A stretch of DNA of 64,000 bases from a virus. Below the pieces are notes generated by a model that saw only the letters and a program-made list of their open reading frames with translations, searched no databases and was not told the origin of the DNA. The position numbers and the translations under genes are program-made. Location: IMG/VR virus record IMGVR_UViG_3300013119_001061; one strand, written 5' to 3'. This document shows, in pieces, positions 3,927 to 43,668 of the stretch; position 1 is the first letter of the stretch; each line of letters starts with the position of its first letter.

Positions 3927-5765
3927 ATGAAATCAATTGAGCAAAAATATAAGAAGCTTGATGATATCGAGCACTGCTTGCTCCGTCCAGGAATGTATGT
4001 AGGGTCGACAAAAACACGCAAAGAAGTCATGAATCTCATTGACGAGGACGATGTTTTCTCTGAAAGAGAAGTAAGTGTCAATCCTGCCTTTATTAAGATA
4101 TTTGATGAGATTATTTCAAATGCAGCAGATGAACACCGACGAAACAAAAAGCTTGACTTAATTGAGGTCATCACTGACGCAGAGACTGGTGAAATTACTG
4201 TTAGTGACAATGGCGGAATTCCAGTAATTCTTCATTCTGAGCACAATGAATACATTCCAGAGATGATTTTCTCAAACCTAAAGGCTGGCTCAAATTTTGA
4301 CGACACTGAGAATAGAATCGTCGCCGGAACCAACGGCGTCGGAGCAACTCTGACCAACATATTTTCTTCAAAGTTTGCAATCGAAACGTGTGACAAAAAG
4401 AAGCTCTACACTCAAGAGTTCAGAAACAACATGCGCGCCAGGTCTGAACCTAAAGTCATCAAGTCGAAAAGCAGCAAGGGCTATACAAAGATATCGTATA
4501 TTGCGGACTTCAATCAGTTTGGATTGAGCGGCCTAGATGATGATCACATTGAGATCATGAGAAAGAGGTGTATTGACCTCGCAGCTTGCAATCCTTGTTT
4601 GACTGTAAGATTCAATGGGACAAAATACAGATACTCAACTTTCAATTCATACTGTCGCCTCTATATTGATGATATTGTCTATGAAGCCTCTGATCGTTGG
4701 CGAATTGGCGTAGGGTCATCTAGCGGAAGCCTAAAGCAAATATCATTCGTCAACAGTGTCGAGACAAAAGATGGCGGCACACATGTCGACGCAGTCTTGA
4801 GTCAAATTATTGCAGAGGTTCGAAAGAAACTCAAGAAGAAGCACAAAGTAGATCTGAAGCCAGCAGAGATCAAGAACCACATCTTTGTATTTGTAAGTGC
4901 AGATATTGTTAACTCATCATTCTCATCTCAGACCAAAGAGAAACTAATCACTGACCCACGTGACTTCGGGTCAAAGCACACACTCTCGGATAAGTTTCTA
5001 AAGTCTGTTTGTGAATCAGAGATGATCCAGAACATCTTAGACTGGGCAATTCAAAAGAAGGATGCAGATGAGAGAAAAGAGCTCAGAAAACTCAACAAGA
5101 AGCTCGGCAAAGAAAAGGTCCAGAATCTGATTGACGCCAAGGGAAAAGACAGGGAATCTTGCACGCTAGCTTTGTTCGAGGGGAAGTCAGCCCTGGCAGC
5201 TTTTAGAAAGTTTAGAAATCCAATGATTCAAGGGTCTTTCCCGCTTAGAGGTAAATTTCTAAACATCGCAGATATGCCGTCCTCCAAGATTATCAAGAAC
5301 AAAGAGGTCTTATCTCTTCTTAAGGCTACCGGCCTTCGTCTTGGAGAGGATGCAGAGAATCTTAGATATGGAAAAATCTTGATCTATTCAGATGCTGATC
5401 CTGATGGAGATTCAATTGCCGGCCTGCTAACAAACTTCTTTGGGAGGTTCTGGCCCGACCTGCTAAAAGACAACAAACTTTTCCGAGTAATGACACCACT
5501 TGTTGTTGTCAAGAAAAAAGACAAAAAGCTGTTGTTCTACACAGATGAAGAATTTGTCGAATGGAAATCCGCAGAGGACAATATTAAATCCTGGGATATA
5601 TCATACAAAAAAGGCCTCGCATCCCTCGCAGATGAAGAATACGAAGAGATTATTAGAAATCCAGAAATGTTTGCCCTTATTCCGGGTGATAACCTAAGGC
5701 AATCGTTGGACAATTGGTTCGGCTCAGATCCTGCAGTTAGAAAACAAAAGATTTTAAATAAGTAA
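3927..5765 (+). CDS. Type IIA topoisomerase ATPase/TOPRIM subunit (GyrB/ParE; T4 gp39+60-like)
   Basis: RPGMYVGS, EIISNAADE, GTNGVGA, FEGKSA, PLRGK, DADPDG and YKKGL motifs. Confidence 0.95.
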   Translation: MKSIEQKYKKLDDIEHCLLRPGMYVGSTKTRKEVMNLIDEDDVFSEREVSVNPAFIKIFDEIISNAADEHRRNKKLDLIEVITDAETGEITVSDNGGIPVILHSEHNEYIPEMIFSNLKAGSNFDDTENRIVAGTNGVGATLTNIFSSKFAIETCDKKKLYTQEFRNNMRARSEPKVIKSKSSKGYTKISYIADFNQFGLSGLDDDHIEIMRKRCIDLAACNPCLTVRFNGTKYRYSTFNSYCRLYIDDIVYEASDRWRIGVGSSSGSLKQISFVNSVETKDGGTHVDAVLSQIIAEVRKKLKKKHKVDLKPAEIKNHIFVFVSADIVNSSFSSQTKEKLITDPRDFGSKHTLSDKFLKSVCESEMIQNILDWAIQKKDADERKELRKLNKKLGKEKVQNLIDAKGKDRESCTLALFEGKSALAAFRKFRNPMIQGSFPLRGKFLNIADMPSSKIIKNKEVLSLLKATGLRLGEDAENLRYGKILIYSDADPDGDSIAGLLTNFFGRFWPDLLKDNKLFRVMTPLVVVKKKDKKLLFYTDEEFVEWKSAEDNIKSWDISYKKGLASLADEEYEEIIRNPEMFALIPGDNLRQSLDNWFGSDPAVRKQKILNK

Positions 5766-5775
5766 AAATAATCAT

Positions 5776-6312
5776 ATGACATTATTATTAGCTATGCTTT
5801 TGTCGACAAACAATACTGTGTGTTTTGCCCCTATTGATATTTCTAAATCTCATATTTCTTCTCGTTATGGAAAAAGGACATTTAAAAAAGGAAAAGTAAT
5901 AAATGGTCATATGATAATGCTTAATCATGATCATCATAGTTTCCACCTTGGCGTAGATATTGTAGCAAAAAAAGGTACCCACGTGAAAAATCAATTCCGC
6001 GGAAGGGTAATCAAAACTTACAAAAGCGATCGCAACGGATCTTACGTTCGGATTGAACACAGTGACAAAGAGCATGATACGGTTCAAGTTCTTTACCACC
6101 ATCTTGATAAAATCTTTGTAAAAGAGGATAGCTGGATCTACCCAGGAGAATTGATCGGAACAGTAGGGGATACGGGTACAGATCACTACCCACATTTACA
6201 TCTCAGTGCTCGATATTTCTCTTATTCAACGAGACAAAAGAAGGATATTAACATTGAAGAAGTTTTTAAGTTCTGTAACTATGAATATAGACATCACGAT
6301 TATGCCCGCTAA
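5776..6312 (+). CDS. M23 family metallopeptidase with signal peptide
   Basis: HLGVDI, YHHL, VGDTG..PHLH motifs; hydrophobic N-terminus. Confidence 0.85.
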   Translation: MTLLLAMLLSTNNTVCFAPIDISKSHISSRYGKRTFKKGKVINGHMIMLNHDHHSFHLGVDIVAKKGTHVKNQFRGRVIKTYKSDRNGSYVRIEHSDKEHDTVQVLYHHLDKIFVKEDSWIYPGELIGTVGDTGTDHYPHLHLSARYFSYSTRQKKDINIEEVFKFCNYEYRHHDYAR

Positions 6313-6324
6313 GGAGAGCTTAAT

Positions 6325-7686
6325 ATGTTATTGAAAGATAAAAAGAGTACTTTTGTTGGTAGAACAGTAGAAAACTTCTTTGATAATGAGCTCAGAAGCT
6401 ACGCGCTTTACACTATCACGAATCGAGCAATCCCGTCAGTGATCGACGGATTCAAGCCGTCACAGCGAAAGATTGCATATGCTGCAAAGCTAGTCTGGAA
6501 GACAGGCAAAGAAAAGCCAATGAAGGTGTTTCAGCTTGGGGGCTACGCAGCGTCTGCAACAATGTTCCACCACGGATCACTTGATGGCACAATCATCACG
6601 ATGACACAGGATTTCAAGAACTCAATGTCTATCTTCGAGGGGATAGGTCAGTTTGGGTCTCTTCGATCTCCAGAGGCCGGAGCCCCGAGATACGTCGGTG
6701 TAAGGTTCAATAAAAACTTTAACCTGCTTTATAAAGACTTTGATCTCCTTGATCACAAATACGAAGAGGGCGAGAAGATCGAGCCAAAGTACTTCCTGCC
6801 CATCATACCGACTGTCTTGCTAAACGGCGGCTCAGGTATCGCTGTGGGATTCTCAACCAACATTCTGAATCGGAACCCGAAGGATTTAATCAAGGCATGT
6901 CTGAAGGTGTTAGCAGGAGAAAAATGCCCACCAGTCAGCCCGTGGATCAATGGCTTCACTGGTGAGTTCAGGCAGGTACCTGACGCGCCAAAGTCATGGG
7001 AGATTTACGGTAAGTACGAAGTAAAGAATACGACTAAGGTAGAGGTTACAGAACTTCCGCCGTCATTTACATACGAAAAGTACGAGGCTCATCTTGATTC
7101 ATTAATTGAAACGGGCGCATTGTCATCATATGAAGACCATTCAGCTGAAACCCCGCACTATATTCTAAAGTTCAAAAGGTCAGAGCTTGCAAAACTAACA
7201 AAGAGAGGTAGGCTTGAAAGCGTTCTCAAAATGAGAGAGCGAGTAGGTGAAAACTATACAACGTTAGACGAAAACGGAGATCTAAAAGTATTTGAATCAC
7301 CCGAGGAGATAATCCGATACTTTATCAAGTTCAGGCTCAAGTACTATACAATTAGAAAGAACCACCTGATATCAAAGCTCACAAAAGAGCTGTGGATCCT
7401 GGAGAATAGAAAACGGTTCATTGAGGAGATACTAGGCGGCAATCTCAAGATTAACAACCGTCCCAAAAGTGATATTATTTCAAGCTTGAAAAAGATGAAT
7501 TTCAAAAATCAAAATGGATCATACAACTATTTGCTGGATATGCCGATTCATAGCCTGACAAAGGAAAAAGCTGAAGAACTAAGGGCTTTGTATGACACTA
7601 GAAAAGAAGAGCTGGAAGAGGTTGGCAAAAAAACAACTAAAACAATGTTTGAGAAAGACTTGCGTGATCTTTATAAAAAGATCTAA
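6325..7686 (+). CDS. Type IIA topoisomerase breakage-reunion subunit (GyrA/ParC; T4 gp52-like)
   Basis: RAIPSVIDGFKPSQRK, HHG, GAPRY (catalytic Tyr), NGGSGIAVG. Confidence 0.95.
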   Translation: MLLKDKKSTFVGRTVENFFDNELRSYALYTITNRAIPSVIDGFKPSQRKIAYAAKLVWKTGKEKPMKVFQLGGYAASATMFHHGSLDGTIITMTQDFKNSMSIFEGIGQFGSLRSPEAGAPRYVGVRFNKNFNLLYKDFDLLDHKYEEGEKIEPKYFLPIIPTVLLNGGSGIAVGFSTNILNRNPKDLIKACLKVLAGEKCPPVSPWINGFTGEFRQVPDAPKSWEIYGKYEVKNTTKVEVTELPPSFTYEKYEAHLDSLIETGALSSYEDHSAETPHYILKFKRSELAKLTKRGRLESVLKMRERVGENYTTLDENGDLKVFESPEEIIRYFIKFRLKYYTIRKNHLISKLTKELWILENRKRFIEEILGGNLKINNRPKSDIISSLKKMNFKNQNGSYNYLLDMPIHSLTKEKAEELRALYDTRKEELEEVGKKTTKTMFEKDLRDLYKKI

Positions 7687-25982: not shown

Positions 25983-26046
25983 AAATCTACAAATCTCCTG
26001 GTTATAATCAAATACAAATCACTTATAAAGTGGGAAGGTAAATAAT

Positions 26047-27762
26047 TTGTCACATTCAGATACGAAAGGAGACTTCGGAAGCTTTGTGCGCCCCAATCGA
26101 TTCGTCGGTTTACACGGGCACTCAGGCTTCTCGTAGTCGACTTACGACGGACTCGGCTATCCAGCTCAGCATATTGACTTCGTTCTTGACAACGAAATGG
26201 ATGCATGGGCACTAACTGACCACGGTCACGGCTCTGGCTTAGCACATGCTCACAAGCACTTCGACAAAATGAAGAAGGCCGGCCGCAAGTATCGGCAGGT
26301 ATACGGTGTTGAGTTCTACTTCGTCGAGGATCTCGATGTTTGGAAGCAAAACTACCTGGGTCACAAAGAAAAAGTCAAGGCTGAGAGAGATGCAAAGAAA
26401 GCTGAGAAGCTTGCAACAACCGATCTAAGCTCTGACAATGAAGATGATCTCAAATCTGAAGGACACACCATTGAGAATGAGGAGGAGTCAAAAGGCGGAG
26501 GTAAGGGGAAACCCGAATGGATGCGCCGCTATCACCTCGTAATCACTGCAAGAAACGCAGCAGGCCTAGCCAATCTTTTCACGCTAGTAAAGAGAGGATA
26601 CACCGACGGCTTCTATCGGTTCCCACGAATTGACTTCAAGCTTCTCAAGCAATACAGCGAAGGTCTAACTGTAAGCTCAGCATGCATTGGCGGAATTACC
26701 GCAGGACGAACATTCCAGCAATTCCCGGGCGTTGATTTCATGGATCTTAAGCCTGATTTGCTAGATGACCCGTCAAAGATGAAGAATCTGATGGGTGTGC
26801 TCGGAAACATAACAGATCGGTTTGTCGATGCAGTAGGACAAGACAACTTCTTCTATGAGCTGCAGTTCAATAAGCTCCCAGCCCAGCATCTATCTAACCG
26901 TGCGCTTCTCGAACTACACGATCAGACGGGAATCGGGCTTATCACCACATGTGACTCCCACTATCCCGGCAAAGAATTATGGGAAGCCCGGGAGCTATAT
27001 AAGAAGCTAGGCTGGATGGGAAATGATCCGTCACCTTTGCCGAAGTTCGACGAGCTAAAGTGTGAGCTTTATCCAAAAAATGCCTCAGAGGTGTGGGATG
27101 AGTTCGACCGCGACTGGCATGCCTATGACTTTTACAAAGGCAGGGAAGAGCTTATTAGAGATAGTGTAGAGAGGACACACGATATTGTCTGGGATCGTTA
27201 TGAAGATGTATGGGTCGACTCTAAGGCTAAGCTACCAAACTATGCTGTGCCTCAAAAGGGACATGCATGCTATCCTGAGGCACCCAAAGATACACCCTTT
27301 CAGCAGCTTGGAAAGCTTGTAAAAGCAGCAATGATCAGTCATGATATGGCCGAAAAACCTGAGTATGTTGCGAGGATCAAAGAAGAGCTAGCTGACATTA
27401 AGTTCCTCGGATTTGAAAACTACTTCCTGACAATGTATGATGTTTTCCACTTGGCCGAGAAGAAAACTCTCTTTGGGCCTGGCCGCGGCTGCTTTTTACC
27501 TGATACACGTGTAAAAATGTCCGACGGATTAATGAACACAATTGAAGCAATTTCTCCCGGTGATCACGTAATTGACGCATACGGAGAAAGTCAAGAGGTT
27601 ATAAAGAAGTTTGTATATGATATCGAGGAAGATATTGTTGAGCTTGAATTTGATGATGGTATCGTAATTAAGTGCACAGTAGATCATAAGTTCTTGACGT
27701 CAAATCGAGGATGGGTTGAGGCTCAAAACTTAAGCGACGAAGATGTTATTGTTGATGTTTGA
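26047..27762 (+). CDS. dnaE: DNA polymerase III alpha N-fragment (PHP + palm start) fused to split-intein N-half; in-frame TAG at 26134-26136
   Basis: Frame reads MSHSD..FVGLHGHSGFS*STYDGLGYP..MDAWALTDHG..YGVE..SAC..DSHY..GPGRG|CFLPDT; GGAAGG RBS before TTG 26047. Confidence 0.88.
27490..27759 (+). mobile_element. Split intein N-half (90 aa) of DnaE
   Basis: Block A CFLPDTRV, block B CTVDHKF, GWVEAQNL then stop. Confidence 0.92.
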
Positions 27763-27823
27763 TATTTATAAATAGTTTAGTTATTCGACCCGGCCCGATA
27801 TACTTATATTGAGAGGGCAAAAT

Positions 27824-28771
27824 ATGAAAACTCGAAAAACACTTTCAAAAGAAAACAAAAAATATATTGACAAACTTCTAGCAGGCAATGACCAGATGTT
27901 TATTAGTCAAGAGATGCTCGAAGTCATTAAGAAAGAAACTGGCCTGACAAGAATGGCGATAAAGCACCAGATATATGATCTTGAATTTGATTATAATTTT
28001 GGGTATTCATGGGGTGAGTTTGATAACAAGACACCCGGAAAGGCACGAGTTTATTTTAGATGCAAGACGTGTAATTGCAAATACAGCATGTTAGCGATCA
28101 AGCTTAGAGGACGAACGTATAGCAACGACCCGATATGCCCAGATCACTATGCTAAGATTGTGACTTCGTCAAAAGTGTGGCGAGAAAAGAATAGAAGTGC
28201 ACAGCTTGTTTCGCAAAATTTACCAGAGGCAAAAGAGAAGCAACGAGTTTCACAACTTCGACGACATGCACAGCCCGGAATGAAAGAAAAATATCGCCAG
28301 ATCGGCTTAACACTGTGGAAAGATCCGGAGTATGCAAAAAGAGTATCAAGCTCACTTCGAGAAAAATGGAAAGATCCGGAGTATGCAAACAAGGTGATGA
28401 ATAACTCAAAGCAACAATATCATGGTAGCTACAGCGGAATGAGGTATCAAAGCTTAATTGAACTATCTTTTATTCTGTGGATGGTTAGTGTAAAAAGAAA
28501 TATTGGGCGTTATAATCTAGAGGGAATAAAATGGGATGGAAACAGAAGCTATTATCCTGATTTTATTGTTGATGGAAATCTAATAGTTGAAGTCAAGGGG
28601 ACCTTAAAGGGATTTATGTATCAAAGAGAAGACGAGATAAAGAGAAAGCAATCTGCTTTAATAGAGTGGTGCAAAGACAGAAAATATGAGCAAAGAATTG
28701 TTGTAAAGAAAGACATACCGAAAGAATTCTACGAGAAGGCAAGGAAAGTGCATGACAAAATTAATCTCTAA
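27824..28771 (+). mobile_element. Free-standing homing endonuclease (PD-(D/E)xK type) between the dnaE halves
   Basis: YQSLIEL, YYPDF..VEVKG; WKDPEY repeat. Confidence 0.8.
28316..28389 (+). repeat. 23-nt direct repeat TGGAAAGATCCGGAGTATGCAAA (x2) encoding WKDPEYA
   Basis: Copies at 28316-28338 and 28367-28389. Confidence 0.85.
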
Positions 28772-31370
28772 AAAGCTTGTTCCGTATGATGGAAAAGTAA
28801 TTGACCTATGTGTTGAAAATTCACACACGTATAACGTTGAAGGAAAAGCAGTTCACAATTCAGGCGCCGGCAGTTTAGTCAATTACTTGCTAGGAATCAC
28901 GCAGATTGACCCGATTCCATACGGTCTACTTTGGAGTCGATTCCTCGGCAGACACAGGACATCGTGGCCGGATATCGACTCGGATGCAGGAGATCGAGAT
29001 GCACTCATTGATGCCGCCCGAGAGCTGTTTGGTAATGATGCTGTTATTCCCGTAAGCAACTTTAATACACTCAAGCTAAAGTCAATTGTCAAGGATGTTG
29101 CTAAGTTCTATGATGTTCCTTTTCAAGAGGTAAATATCGTCACAGGACCATTACAAGCTGACGTAGAGCCTCATGCTCGAGATGCTAATACTGAGAAGTC
29201 GGTATTCGTTTTGACCCACGAGGATTGCATGAAGTATTCAGAGAAATATCTTGCTTTCATGACGAAATATCCGCATGTAGAAGATCATGTGAGCACGTTG
29301 TTTATGGAGCAAAAATCAATTGGCCGTCATGCAGGCGGTGTTCTTATTGCAGATGCACGTGAGCTTGAGAAGACAATCCCACTAATCTCAGTTCGAGGTG
29401 ACTTGCAAACTCCGTGGACTGAGGGAATGAACTTCAGAAACCTCGAAGATAATGGGTTCATTAAGTTTGATTTCCTCGGACTCACACTGATGAAAGATGT
29501 GGAAAATTGTATCCGAAGAATCCTCATTAAAGACGGGCAAAAGAATCCATCGTTTATGGATATCAAGGAATTCTTTGATAAAAACTTGAATTGTCGTACT
29601 ATTAAGCAAGATGATCCAAGGGTATGGGAGAATGTATATCACCAAAAGAACTTTGCCCCAGGCATCTTTCAGTTTACTGCGCAAGGAGCTCGAAACTTCT
29701 GTATGCAAGCTAAGCCTGAAAACATTGAGGAGCTCGGTGCAATCACAGCAATTTATCGACCGGGCCCACTGAAGGCAAATGTTCATATTGATTATGTCGC
29801 AGCAAAGAACGACCGAGACAATATCGTGTATGACCACCCAGTGATTGAGAAGATCCTCGGTGCAACTTGTGGATTCATCACGTTTCAAGAGCAGTTCATG
29901 ACTTTGGCAGTGGAACTAGCAGGATTTACGCCCGGCGAATCTGATAAAATGCGTAAGACGCTGGTGAAGAAGTCGCTTGACACAATCGGCAAAAAAGGTT
30001 CAGAACGTGATGCATTGCGCAAGAAGTTTGTTGAAGGTGCTGAGAGATTACATGATCTAGATCCGAAAATCACACATGCACTCTTCGACAAGATCGAGTT
30101 CTTCAGCCTGTATGGGTTTAATAAATCACATGCTATCTCTTACGCAATTGACAGTTACTACGCAGCATGGCTCTTTACTTATCACCCCAATGAGTGGATT
30201 GCAGCTGTTCTTCAATCTGAAAATGGAAGCCCGAAAAATCTGTCAAAAGCAATCCGCGAGGCAAAGGTTCTTGACTTCAAGTTCGAACAGTCAGACATCA
30301 ACTACTCGGGCATTGAGTGGGAATTTAACTATGAAAAGAACGCATTCATTCCGCCGCTAACCTCCATCAAAGGTTTGGGAAAGACGGCGATGGCAGAACT
30401 GATTAAGCATAGACCCTATGCGTCAGTCAAAGATCTGTTCTTTAATAAGCGCGGTGAATGGCGATTCTCAAAGGCAAATAAGACAACCTTCGGAGCGCTA
30501 TGTCAAATTGAGGCATTCTCATCACTTGACGAGCTTGAAAGCGGAGATATTGAAAATCACCGACAGCTTTATCACTTGATTGTGGACAATTACGATAAAA
30601 TCAAAAAAGCAAATGATGGAAAACAAAAGTGGTTGGATAAGCTTCCTGTCCTCGCTGAAAAAAATTATGAGGAGGTCAAAAAGATTATCAAGGTATTCGA
30701 AAAATACAAGAATGAAGACACTGCATTAAAAATGAAGGCAGTTGTTGAAGATTCAAATGTCATGGATTGGAACTATATTGACAATCTTTCATCTGAGCTT
30801 AGGGTATACGAGCACAATCAGCCTCGACGACAGCTGCAAGTCGACAGATGCTTCACCCGCCTAGAAGAGAACACTGTAAAAAGAGATAAAATCTTAGATA
30901 GGCTTGATCAATATTTCGATCTCAAAGAAGCAATCAAGGATTATGAAGATATCGAAGACTGGGCAAGAGATGAAAAGATTCGGCTATATCAAGAGATCAC
31001 GTCAGCAATCAATAACGAGCTTGTATTTCCGTCTGAAGTAATGGATAGAATCACGAGGACTGATATGCCGTCAGTATGTGAAATTGAGGGCGGCCAAAAG
31101 GCTGTGGCATGGGGTTGCATCGCCGAGGTTCAAAAGAAGAAGACGAAAAAGGGAAAAGATTTCTATCGTCTCAGAATGATCGATGAGCAAAACCGAAATT
31201 GCTGGCTCAGGGTTTGGGGTAAGTTCTTTGATTGGGGCGAAGAAAGAGGGCAGAAGGTTTATTATGAACCCCCTTCATTCTCTTATTGGTTGATGGAAGT
31301 TGACGTCGATCCGAATTGGGGAGCATCTACTGCAGCATGGAAAATGAGAAGGATACCTCTTGTTGATTAA
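28752..31370 (+). CDS. dnaE: Split-intein C-half (36 aa, 28752-28859) fused to DNA polymerase III alpha C-fragment
   Basis: ..DLCVENSHTYNVEGKAVHN|SGAGSLV; PDIDSD, GRHAGG, KFDFLGL, YRPGP, FQEQ, YGFNKSH. Confidence 0.93.
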   Translation: MTKLISKKLVPYDGKVIDLCVENSHTYNVEGKAVHNSGAGSLVNYLLGITQIDPIPYGLLWSRFLGRHRTSWPDIDSDAGDRDALIDAARELFGNDAVIPVSNFNTLKLKSIVKDVAKFYDVPFQEVNIVTGPLQADVEPHARDANTEKSVFVLTHEDCMKYSEKYLAFMTKYPHVEDHVSTLFMEQKSIGRHAGGVLIADARELEKTIPLISVRGDLQTPWTEGMNFRNLEDNGFIKFDFLGLTLMKDVENCIRRILIKDGQKNPSFMDIKEFFDKNLNCRTIKQDDPRVWENVYHQKNFAPGIFQFTAQGARNFCMQAKPENIEELGAITAIYRPGPLKANVHIDYVAAKNDRDNIVYDHPVIEKILGATCGFITFQEQFMTLAVELAGFTPGESDKMRKTLVKKSLDTIGKKGSERDALRKKFVEGAERLHDLDPKITHALFDKIEFFSLYGFNKSHAISYAIDSYYAAWLFTYHPNEWIAAVLQSENGSPKNLSKAIREAKVLDFKFEQSDINYSGIEWEFNYEKNAFIPPLTSIKGLGKTAMAELIKHRPYASVKDLFFNKRGEWRFSKANKTTFGALCQIEAFSSLDELESGDIENHRQLYHLIVDNYDKIKKANDGKQKWLDKLPVLAEKNYEEVKKIIKVFEKYKNEDTALKMKAVVEDSNVMDWNYIDNLSSELRVYEHNQPRRQLQVDRCFTRLEENTVKRDKILDRLDQYFDLKEAIKDYEDIEDWARDEKIRLYQEITSAINNELVFPSEVMDRITRTDMPSVCEIEGGQKAVAWGCIAEVQKKKTKKGKDFYRLRMIDEQNRNCWLRVWGKFFDWGEERGQKVYYEPPSFSYWLMEVDVDPNWGASTAAWKMRRIPLVD

Positions 31371-41172: not shown

Positions 41173-42015
41173 GTGAAAATCCAAGAGACTCTTGCCTACG
41201 AAGATGTTCTACTCGTCCCCCAATACTCAGACATTAAATCCCGATCAGAATGTGACACATCAGTCACTCTCGGCTCCGGAGTCAATCTCAAGCTACCCAT
41301 TATTGCATCATGCATGGACACGGTGACTGAAGCTGAGATGGCTGCAGCAATCGGTCTTATGGGTGGCCTCGGCGTCATCCACCGGTATAATTCGCCAGAG
41401 GAACAAGCACAGCAAGTAATAAAAGCAATACAATTATCAGAGCATGAGGCACCTATTGCCGCAGCGATTGGAGTAACAGATGACTATTTTCACCGAGCAG
41501 ACCTTCTTGTTAATGCTGGAGCCTCTGCTCTTTGCATTGATGTGGCACATGGTCACCACATTCTCGTAAAAGAGGTGCTAGAGGAGCTTCGTGCTACTCT
41601 GGGTGAGGATTTTTGCTTGATTGCAGGTAATGTTGCCACCCTCGAGGGAATTAACGACCTCGCTGATTGGGGGGCTAACGCAGTACGCTGCAACATCGGC
41701 GGAGGCTGCTTTGTTCCGGGTACAAAAGTTCGAACTGAAAACGGTTTAAAGAATATTGAAAATGTTAAAGTCGGTGATAGAGTCTATACACATACAGGAA
41801 ATCTAAAGCCAGTTATTGATACATTAGCTTTTGATAGAAGTGAAGCAATAACTGTGATTAACGATATTGAATGTACATCAAATCATGAATTTTATGTCGT
41901 AAACAGAGAAGATGTCGAACTTATCAATGAAAACAATATTCACGAGTATGCAAAGTGGATCGCAGCATATGATCTAGACGAACAGCAACATCTTTTAATA
42001 AAAACATTGGAATAG
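41173..42015 (+). CDS. guaB: IMP dehydrogenase/GMP reductase N-fragment + split-intein N-half (41707-42012, 102 aa)
   Basis: DVLLVP, MDTVTE, IDVAHGH, AGNVAT, NIGGG|CFVPGTKV..CTSNHEF. Confidence 0.92.
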   Translation: MKIQETLAYEDVLLVPQYSDIKSRSECDTSVTLGSGVNLKLPIIASCMDTVTEAEMAAAIGLMGGLGVIHRYNSPEEQAQQVIKAIQLSEHEAPIAAAIGVTDDYFHRADLLVNAGASALCIDVAHGHHILVKEVLEELRATLGEDFCLIAGNVATLEGINDLADWGANAVRCNIGGGCFVPGTKVRTENGLKNIENVKVGDRVYTHTGNLKPVIDTLAFDRSEAITVINDIECTSNHEFYVVNREDVELINENNIHEYAKWIAAYDLDEQQHLLIKTLE

Positions 42016-42065
42016 GATCAAAATGTATCTACTTGTATATTTATATACATAGGGAGCCATATTCA

Positions 42066-43076
42066 ATGTGTAGTAAAGAAAAATATTGTAGAGAGTGCGG
42101 AGAATCAATATCGAGCAAAAAAACATTTTGCGATTCGATTTGCTATGAGAAAAATAGAAAAGTTGATGATATAAAAAAGTGCAATTATTGCAAAGAAGAC
42201 TTTGCTTGCCAGGGTTCTAGTCGGCTATACTGCTCTAAAGAATGCAGAACTAAAGGGACGAGAGTTAAAAATGGATATAAGAAAAAGCTCTGTCAAGAAT
42301 GCAAAGAAGAAATATTGGGCCGCGGCACCAAATACTGTTCAAACAAATGCAAAGGGCTAGCAAAGGCTGGCAAGAATAACTCATTTTATGGCAAGAAGCA
42401 CTCTAAAGAAACCAGGGAGAAGATAAGAAATGCTCTATCAGGAAAGCTATCCGGAGACAAAAATCCATTTTACGGCAAAATACACTCGGATGCTACAAAA
42501 CAGAAGATAATTGATGGAAACAAAAAATTTAGAGAAGAAAATAAAGTCTTAGTTCTTGAAAGAACACTGCGACGTCTAGGTTTGACTGAAAGCAAGCTGG
42601 AGGGCCTGTGGCACACGTATTCGACCACACTCGAGTTTAACCAGAGTGATCTTAAAAGACTCGCGGGCAACATAGACATAAGATCGATTAAAAAATATTT
42701 GTTCTTTTTTAATATAGTTGATGAAGATGAATTTGAAAAAACTGTGCATAAGAAAAAGATGGGTCGAGCCGGATCTTCCCCTGAGCGACGATTATATGAA
42801 ATGTTATGTGCTAAGTTTGGCAGGAGAAACATAAGTAGGCAATTTAAGATAGAGAGAAAGTTTTATGATTTTATAGTTTTTGGAAAATATTTGATAGAAT
42901 ATGATGGTTATTACTGGCATAATAATTCAAAATCAAGAGACGATATTAAGGATGACATTGCAAAAAGAAGTGGATATCCTTTGTATCGAGTAAAAGAGCC
43001 AAAAAATAGAAGCGTTGATTTTATTGATGAAATAGAAAAAATTGAAGGGTTTATAAATGAAGTTCGAATTAGTTGA
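42066..43076 (+). mobile_element. Free-standing homing endonuclease (Zn fingers, NUMOD3, Vsr/DUF559-like nuclease) between the IMPDH halves
   Basis: CxxC..CSxxC repeats, NSFYGKKHSKET, FYDF..IEYDGYYWH; GGGAG RBS before ATG 42066. Confidence 0.82.
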
Positions 43077-43668
43077 GTTTAAGAAGAGAATGAAGCACTA
43101 TGAGGGAAAAGTTCATGACTTAACAGTTGAGGATGATCACTCGTATAATGTTGACGGCATTGTAGTGCACAATTCAATCTGCTCAACTCGCATCCAGACC
43201 GGCCATGGCGTCCCAGGCCTGCAAACAATCTTTGACTGCTATCATACAGATCGAAACGTAGCAATCATTGCCGATGGCGGCATTAAAAACTCCGGAGATA
43301 TCGTAAAAGCTATTGCTGCAGGCGCTGACGCTGTAATGCTAGGTTCACTTCTCGCAGGGACCGACGAAGCTCCCGGAGATATTGTCTACGTCGACGGCGA
43401 GAAGAGAAAGACGTATAGGGGTATGGCCAGCCCCGAAGCACAGTTCAATTGGCGAGGAAGAGCAAGTAGTCTTGAGGGGATTTCAACCACAGTGGCACAT
43501 AAAGGCTCAGTGAGGGACATAGTTAGTAACCTAACACAAGGTTTGCGGAGTGGAATGTCATATTCAGGTGCTCGAACAATTACAGAGCTGCAACGACGTT
43601 CACAGTTTATCCGACAAACATCATCGGGAGCAAACGAAAGTGGAACACATATTCTCAATAATCACTAG
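43057..43668 (+). CDS. guaB: Split-intein C-half (39 aa, 43057-43173) + IMPDH C-fragment
   Basis: ..[52 protein letters not shown]. Confidence 0.93.

Follow-up and report, generated by a model that had tools for sequence, protein, structure and literature searches.

A 64,000-nucleotide (nt) stretch of DNA from an uncultured phage in IMG/VR (record IMGVR_UViG_3300013119_001061), hereafter called the window, carries a dnaE gene in which motif I of the PHP domain is interrupted by 6 nt, the stop codon TAG followed by the serine codon TCG. The best explanation appears to be a ribosomal stop-hop that would use nine bases to specify a single serine, a reading that we hold with moderate confidence. 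The gap is very likely real in kind and derived from a mobile cassette, and TAG-TCG is the smallest known version of this cassette-borne coding gap in PHP motif I. Taken over the family, the sequences would probably represent natural stop-hops of 5 to 12 nt that were spread among the dnaE genes of aquatic phages by a cassette with a PD-(D/E)XK-type nuclease, independently of bacteriophage T4 gene 60, with the window as their minimal form.

The reading frame that starts at TTG 26047 reads ..HGHSGFS, then TAG and TCG, and then TYDGLGYP.., and it stays open to position 27762. The original prediction, which had been made from the letters of this DNA alone, described this frame with its upstream ribosome-binding site (RBS) and the string TCG-TAG-TCG at 26131-26139, and the sequence is as it stated. 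Position 2 of the Pfam PHP profile falls on residue 22 of the 29-codon N-terminal open reading frame (ORF). The Shine-Dalgarno-like string of the window, GGGAAGG, also precedes the N-terminal ORF in five related loci (L058, L060, L124, L130, and L191). TAG is an ordinary stop codon in the window, as had been claimed, since it terminates 12 of the 60 plus-strand ORFs of at least 120 amino acids.

To place this arrangement in context, 265 related loci were gathered from viral contigs, metagenome contigs, and a protein search. No close relative was found among isolated phages by blastn, and the tblastn matches to them all had less than 30% identity. The distance from the first histidine of HxH to the aspartate of DG is 27 nt in 134 loci and 30 nt in 71 (205 related loci) compared to 33 nt in the window, so that exactly 6 nt are extra and their removal gives the spacing of the family. 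The claim that excising precisely these 6 nt restores the canonical spacing of motif I is thus borne out by 205 related loci that have the motif without them. The closest relative, L044, a Tara Oceans scaffold with 90% amino acid identity, has no insert and encodes the serine with AGT, and its dnaE begins with the same TTG TCA CA as that of the window. Between the gap and ATG 26197, the two sequences differ by 11 synonymous codons and 1 nonsynonymous codon, and motif I is intact; synonymous changes exceed nonsynonymous ones on both sides of the gap.

The original prediction had proposed aligning dnaE from related phages around this site, and the alignment revealed 20 different pairings of a take-off codon with a gap. 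All of them lie at one and the same codon boundary and share the layout of a codon, a stop, and a matching codon. These gaps are 5 to 12 nt long, and their lengths are multiples of three in 9 cases, leaving a remainder of one in 7 and of two in 4. In all 20, the first triplet of the gap is TAA, TAG, or TGA directly after the serine codon, the last triplet agrees with the take-off serine codon at two or more positions, and position 2 of this landing triplet is that of the take-off codon; position 3 also agrees in 17, wobble allowed, and the three landing triplets without this match remain within TCN. Such a match between take-off and landing occurs at a background rate of 5.3% in the same stretches. 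Take-off TCG 26131 and landing TCG 26137 are identical in the window, while five near-cognate landings that are one base off the take-off codon (ACG, GCG, ACC, and ACT) all differ at the first base. The sole AGT take-off (L128) has TGC as its landing triplet, which keeps positions 2 and 3 within wobble. Without its gap, each allele has the canonical motif again. Where the nearest plain allele encodes the serine with AGT or AGC (L044, L131, L175, L181, L193, and L227), the interrupted allele has a TCN take-off and an NCN landing; the landing triplet therefore appears to be matched to the take-off codon and not merely inherited from the parent. Recurrence extends to independent assemblies, with one gap allele present on 8 contigs from different runs and a 9-nt allele present in 9 viral contigs.

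Comparison with near-identical plain partners (L130/L131, with 98% amino acid identity, L191/L188, and L149/L175) mapped an insert of about 1.07 to 1.13 kilobases (kb). Its left end lies just after the phenylalanine codon of the parental motif, and what remains there of the original 5′ end is a short dead copy. The cassette then comprises, in order, a nuclease gene, an RBS with a new N-terminal ORF, a stop-led gap, and a landing triplet that abuts the parental codons. The RBS is formed by the last codons of the nuclease gene; the N-terminal ORF consists of an extension and a repeat of the first PHP strand with HxH-S-x-F-S; and the gap consists of a stop codon, 0 to 9 further bases, and a serine-like triplet. 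An ORF of 270 to 322 amino acids ending in ..WEGK lies upstream of many interrupted alleles, and the nuclease ORF is full in nine loci (L060, L130, L135, L164, L168, L191, L202, L225, and L260). The nuclease ORFs match Phage_endo_I (PF05367), at or just below threshold, and DUF7487, without any HNH match, and their product is apparently a homing endonuclease of the PD-(D/E)XK type. Of the 26 distinct interrupted alleles, 15 have the hallmark ..WEGK/TGGGARGG no more than 200 nt upstream of HxH; none of the 146 plain alleles does. When 171 distinct DnaE N-parts were placed on a tree, the interrupted state was scattered, with at least 18 state changes for the 26 interrupted alleles, which is the pattern that would be expected from a homing element. 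In carriers of the full cassette, the nuclease gene is preceded by the dead copy of the dnaE 5′ end, which is cut after the phenylalanine codon, closed by a stop, and followed by a left-end motif (..TTAGTAT..) that the carriers share. In L137 and L149, the nuclease gene is deleted between the two copies of the 5′ end.

The window retains both the hallmark and C-terminal codons of the nuclease, and it is therefore a carrier of the cassette in which the nuclease gene was deleted except for its last 20 codons while the gap was kept. The remnant shares 10 of 15 residues with the C terminus of the 322-amino-acid L191 nuclease (pairwise E value of 4e-5), and Y, W, E, G, and K do not vary among the 11 nuclease ends aligned with it. 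The original prediction had considered the gap by itself; the matched-codon hop that it drew from it now has strong comparative backing, but it missed the origin of the gap as the right-hand joint of a cassette. The whole cassette was also considered as a group I intron, an idea rejected for the window, where no upstream exon copy is left. The remnant occupies the 61 nt between the dCMP deaminase gene and dnaE in the window; L044 has at this place an ORF of 549 amino acids with Gly/Ala-rich repeats (L044:1129-2778).

The gap also affects existing annotations. About 15 of the best 120 protein matches are public gene calls that begin at a conserved internal methionine, that of ..MDAW.., and in all five such cases whose DNA was examined (P0008, P0019, P0037, P0046, and P0070), the 5′ end is cut off by the gap. 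These DnaE annotations are consequently truncated by about 50 residues.

According to the mechanism that we propose, the ribosome would arrive at the serine codon TCG 26131 with a nascent chain of 29 residues and with TAG, which is slow to decode, in the A site. The peptidyl-tRNA-Ser would then unpair, slide over 6 nt, and pair again with TCG 26137, so that decoding would restart at ACT 26140 and produce a normal DnaE N-part; both this hop and its efficiency are inferred. The distance from the start of the N-terminal ORF to the first histidine has a median of 23 codons in interrupted alleles versus 15 in plain ones (Mann-Whitney P = 9e-11, uncorrected for phylogeny). Since interrupted alleles have these longer N-terminal ORFs, a nascent chain of about 30 residues at take-off may reflect the need to keep the chain within the exit tunnel. 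As for the cassette itself, the gap would interrupt the DNA site of its own nuclease and could thereby confer immunity; a seamless joint might recreate the nuclease site, as has been demonstrated for T4 MobA and the gene 60 gap.

While the passage from a serine codon over a stop to a matching serine codon gained a comparative rule from the 20 distinct gaps, two further parts of the original prediction found no support. The first is a hairpin, TCGTAG-TCGAC-TTACGA, which can be formed on paper but is not conserved and does not rise above chance when its fold is compared to those of shuffled sequences (z = −0.47). The second is that the hop gates or regulates synthesis of the polymerase, and nothing in the analysis indicates a regulatory role. 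Strong take-off hairpins are confined to long gaps (L163 and L179). Such gaps, of 38, 68, and 67 nt, lie one serine codon earlier, after HxH-S, and are flanked by matched TCN codons. Those in L163 (z = −3.5) and L179 (z = −4.7) hold strong hairpins, and L264 holds an inverted repeat by sequence, which was not folded; in L163, TAG follows the take-off codon and the hairpin resembles an intrinsic terminator. In form, these three gaps are nearer to the T4 gene 60 gap. In addition, the N-terminal ORF of many interrupted alleles contains an AAAGGAG-like string, about 60 nt ahead of the take-off codon; L044 has no such string. This string was rejected as the true RBS, since neither the window nor the L129 clade has an in-frame start at a suitable distance from it.

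The hop remains the favored reading because a dead allele, a separate start, and readthrough or recoding each fit poorly. It is unlikely that the allele is simply defective, i.e., that the 6 nt are a cassette scar or an assembly error that inactivates dnaE in a genome that is either complemented or inviable. This view could explain why the exact allele is known from one contig only and why L044 does not have the 6 nt, and hops in model systems are reportedly inefficient. It does not account for a rule common to 20 distinct alleles, several of which were assembled many times, and a stop would stand at the start of a random 6-nt insert in only about 5% of cases, with a repeat of the preceding codon rarer still. 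Moreover, the nuclease gene shrank to 20 codons with dnaE still open over about 1,350 codons, which implies that generations of replication were needed after the gap arose, and no other DNA polymerase gene was present among the large ORFs of the window that were examined.

We give still less credence to a two-piece enzyme, in which a 29-residue peptide would be released at TAG and the rest would begin separately from ATG 26197 or from a non-AUG codon downstream of the gap, with the peptide supplying the first PHP strand noncovalently or not at all. A stop right after the serine codon would also be expected of a separate small ORF; in L058 and L059, an ATG in the resumed frame overlaps the stop (TAATG), and gene callers begin many family members at the methionine of ..MDAW... 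However, in the window the stretch from the gap to ATG 26197 is free of in-frame ATG, GTG, and TTG codons, and so is the stretch from the gap to the conserved methionine in the other alleles with in-frame gaps. A product begun at ATG 26197 would miss the first 28 of the 164 PHP profile positions, including the aspartate of DG, although the 19 skipped codons have been kept intact, and the rule for the landing triplet would have no role.

Very improbable as well is amber readthrough by a suppressor transfer RNA (tRNA) or by near-cognate decoding, which would place two extra residues in motif I. The gap of the window is in frame, and the 71 plain relatives with 30-nt spacing tolerate one extra residue in this loop, but the use of TAG as a terminator described above speaks against a reassigned codon. 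The amber suppressor tRNA for which the original prediction had suggested looking did not turn up, as no tRNA gene was found in the 64-kb window, and one may exist elsewhere in the genome. Furthermore, some sister gaps hold two consecutive stops, all three stop codons are used, TAA and TGA included, and 11 of the 20 lengths are not multiples of three, such that neither readthrough nor a changed code can be the mechanism of the family. Finally, removal of the gap from the RNA as a micro-intron or an edited stretch is barely plausible: it would give the same canonical protein, and phage polymerase genes often carry group I introns, but 5 to 12 nt are too short for any self-splicing fold that is known, the surroundings of the gap have no conserved structure, and no known bacterial machinery excises such a stretch.

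Several observations weigh against the stop-hop itself. Synthetic stop-hops are said to be about 1% efficient, which seems low for a replicative polymerase. The 6-nt allele of the window is known from a single contig, and a search of viral contigs for its exact flanks, with or without the 6 nt, matched nothing. In addition to the unremarkable hairpin of the window, the mean fold score of the short gaps is near the control value, and nine 9-nt alleles gave −1.2 kcal/mol with RNAalifold, with no consensus fold, covariation, or compensatory pair. The short gaps leave no room for an in-gap Shine-Dalgarno element of the kind that aids bypass in T4. Conservation of the flanks mostly predates the insertion or was copied again by homing, and it is no proof of selection since the origin of the gap. 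In part, the landing triplet could be a historical relic of the first host of the cassette, and the gap alleles are phylogenetically nonindependent, so that a binomial P value overstates the evidence.

The closest parallel is the MobA element of T4, in which a nuclease is combined with an N-terminal extension, a replacement region of homologous sequence, and a bypass cassette whose end is the landing codon (Manning and Atkins, bioRxiv 10.1101/2022.08.31.505936, where the element is also credited to Bonocora et al. 2011). It was repeatedly inserted at one site, and relatives of T4 often lose the nuclease and keep the cassette (10.1101/2022.08.31.505936). The dnaE cassette resembles it in being an element of about 1.1 kb that was repeatedly inserted at one site of a conserved replication gene and in having a nuclease gene upstream of an N-terminal extension, a replacement region that copies the displaced codons of the host, and a stop-led gap ending at a matching landing codon. 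As with MobA, near-identical genomes exist without the insert (the three pairs above), and carriers, the window among them, often keep the gap after loss of the nuclease. Matched take-off and landing codons and a stop directly 3′ of the take-off codon are likewise found in gene 60. On the other hand, the nuclease is PD-(D/E)XK/Phage_endo_I-like rather than HNH, the host gene is dnaE rather than topoisomerase II, the gap has 5 to 12 nt (6 in the window) instead of 20 to 50 nt, and the take-off codon is serine instead of glycine GGA. The short dnaE gaps also lack a detectable stem-loop at take-off and an in-gap Shine-Dalgarno element, and the displaced dnaE fragment of about 25 codons probably has no use, in contrast to T4 gp39, a functional subunit. 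Sequence homology between the two systems is absent. Because the defining HNH and topoisomerase features are absent, the dnaE cassette is an analogue of the MobA element and not a member.

Other precedents are more distant. In the synthetic E. coli stop-hops of Weiss et al. 1987, as recounted in PMC5009743, matching codons lie on both sides of a stop, and 9 nt are used per amino acid. The TCG-TAG-TCG of the window has exactly this layout, but it occurs naturally in a gene that is apparently essential, and gaps of its kind recur in many phages. In 2016, the same review stated that no natural in-frame stop-hop was known and that shorter counterparts had "long been presumed" (PMC5009743); our literature search found no description of this dnaE gap. 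The mitochondria of Magnusiomyces capitatus contain 81 bypass inserts (PMC5009743). Like the dnaE gaps, these are short mobile inserts in coding sequences that are made harmless by bypass between matching codons. The inserts of this yeast mitochondrion are GC-rich, 27 to 55 nt long, and without a nuclease cassette, and only the rare long gaps of L163, L179, and L264 resemble them.

Fractured genes, in which a split intein is accompanied by a free-standing endonuclease, have been reported by Dassa et al. 2009 (PMC2677866). The dnaE of the window is itself fractured farther downstream (27490-28860) in this known arrangement by a split intein and an endonuclease gene, whose product is a distant relative of the cassette nuclease (26% identity over 213 amino acids with the nuclease at L060:1290-2213, pairwise E value of 2e-5) and has no Pfam match (Table 1). 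The dnaE of L044 is contiguous across this point. In habitat (phage metagenomes of marine and lake origin) and in nuclease type, the system of Dassa et al. agrees with the arrangement in the window. Its break, however, is repaired by protein trans-splicing, whereas the motif I gap has no intein and must be dealt with during translation. A second fractured gene was observed at 41173-43668, where IMPDH is split by a split intein and a NUMOD3/DUF559 endonuclease gene (42033-43076) lies between the halves. In the window, a peptidase M23 gene (5776-6312) also lies between GyrB-like and GyrA-like genes for topoisomerase II, and no gap of the gene 60 type was seen in this region (3927-7686).

Table 1. 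Features of the window and of related loci. Positions without a locus name refer to the window.
Feature	Location	Strand	Description
Nuclease remnant	25983..26045	+	Last 20 codons (25983-26042, ..WEGK) and stop TAA (26043-26045); directly follows the dCMP deaminase stop
Shine-Dalgarno-like GGGAAGG	26032..26038	+	8 nt before TTG 26047; doubles as the WEG codons of the nuclease remnant
N-terminal ORF of DnaE	26047..26133	+	29 codons: N-terminal extension, first beta strand, and HxH of PHP motif I; ends at take-off serine TCG 26131-26133
Coding gap, 6 nt	26134..26139	+	Stop TAG (26134-26136) and landing triplet TCG (26137-26139)
Resumed DnaE frame	26140..27762	+	Rest of PHP domain, start of polymerase core, and split-intein N-half from about 27490; Pfam PHP, DNA_pol3_alpha, and Intein_splicing
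Free-standing endonuclease gene	27809..28771	+	320 amino acids; between the split-intein halves of dnaE
Split-intein C-half and DnaE C-part	28752..31370	+	Polymerase core, fingers, and HhH
AAAGGAG-like string	26062-26068; L058:2846-2852; L129:1346-1353; L128:1484-1490		
Dead copy of dnaE 5′ end	L130:288-346; L135; L136; L168; L191:415-470; L202; L137; L149		
Longer gaps	L163:1379-1449; L176; L179:1054-1154; L264:1413-1512		L176 is on the same contig as L163
DnaE proteins called from the internal methionine	P0008, P0011, P0012, P0019, P0020, P0022, P0024, P0037, P0039, P0040, P0046, P0063, P0070, P0077, P0119		

Translational bypass that is actually used is known so far from T4 gene 60 and its homologues and from one group of yeast mitochondria, and otherwise from synthetic constructs. 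If the stop-hop is correct, the dnaE genes of aquatic phages would offer dozens of natural variants of a minimal bypass that differ in length, frame, stop codon, and landing codon and that seemingly work without a hairpin and without an in-gap Shine-Dalgarno element. The layout of the window, nine bases for one serine, would be the natural counterpart of a design known only from synthetic constructs. The annotation of these polymerases would have to be corrected, as gene callers truncate them at an internal methionine. The cassette would also be a second, independent case of a selfish nuclease and a coding gap that travel together, and such a pairing would support the view that bypass evolves as a form of self-immunity of homing elements.

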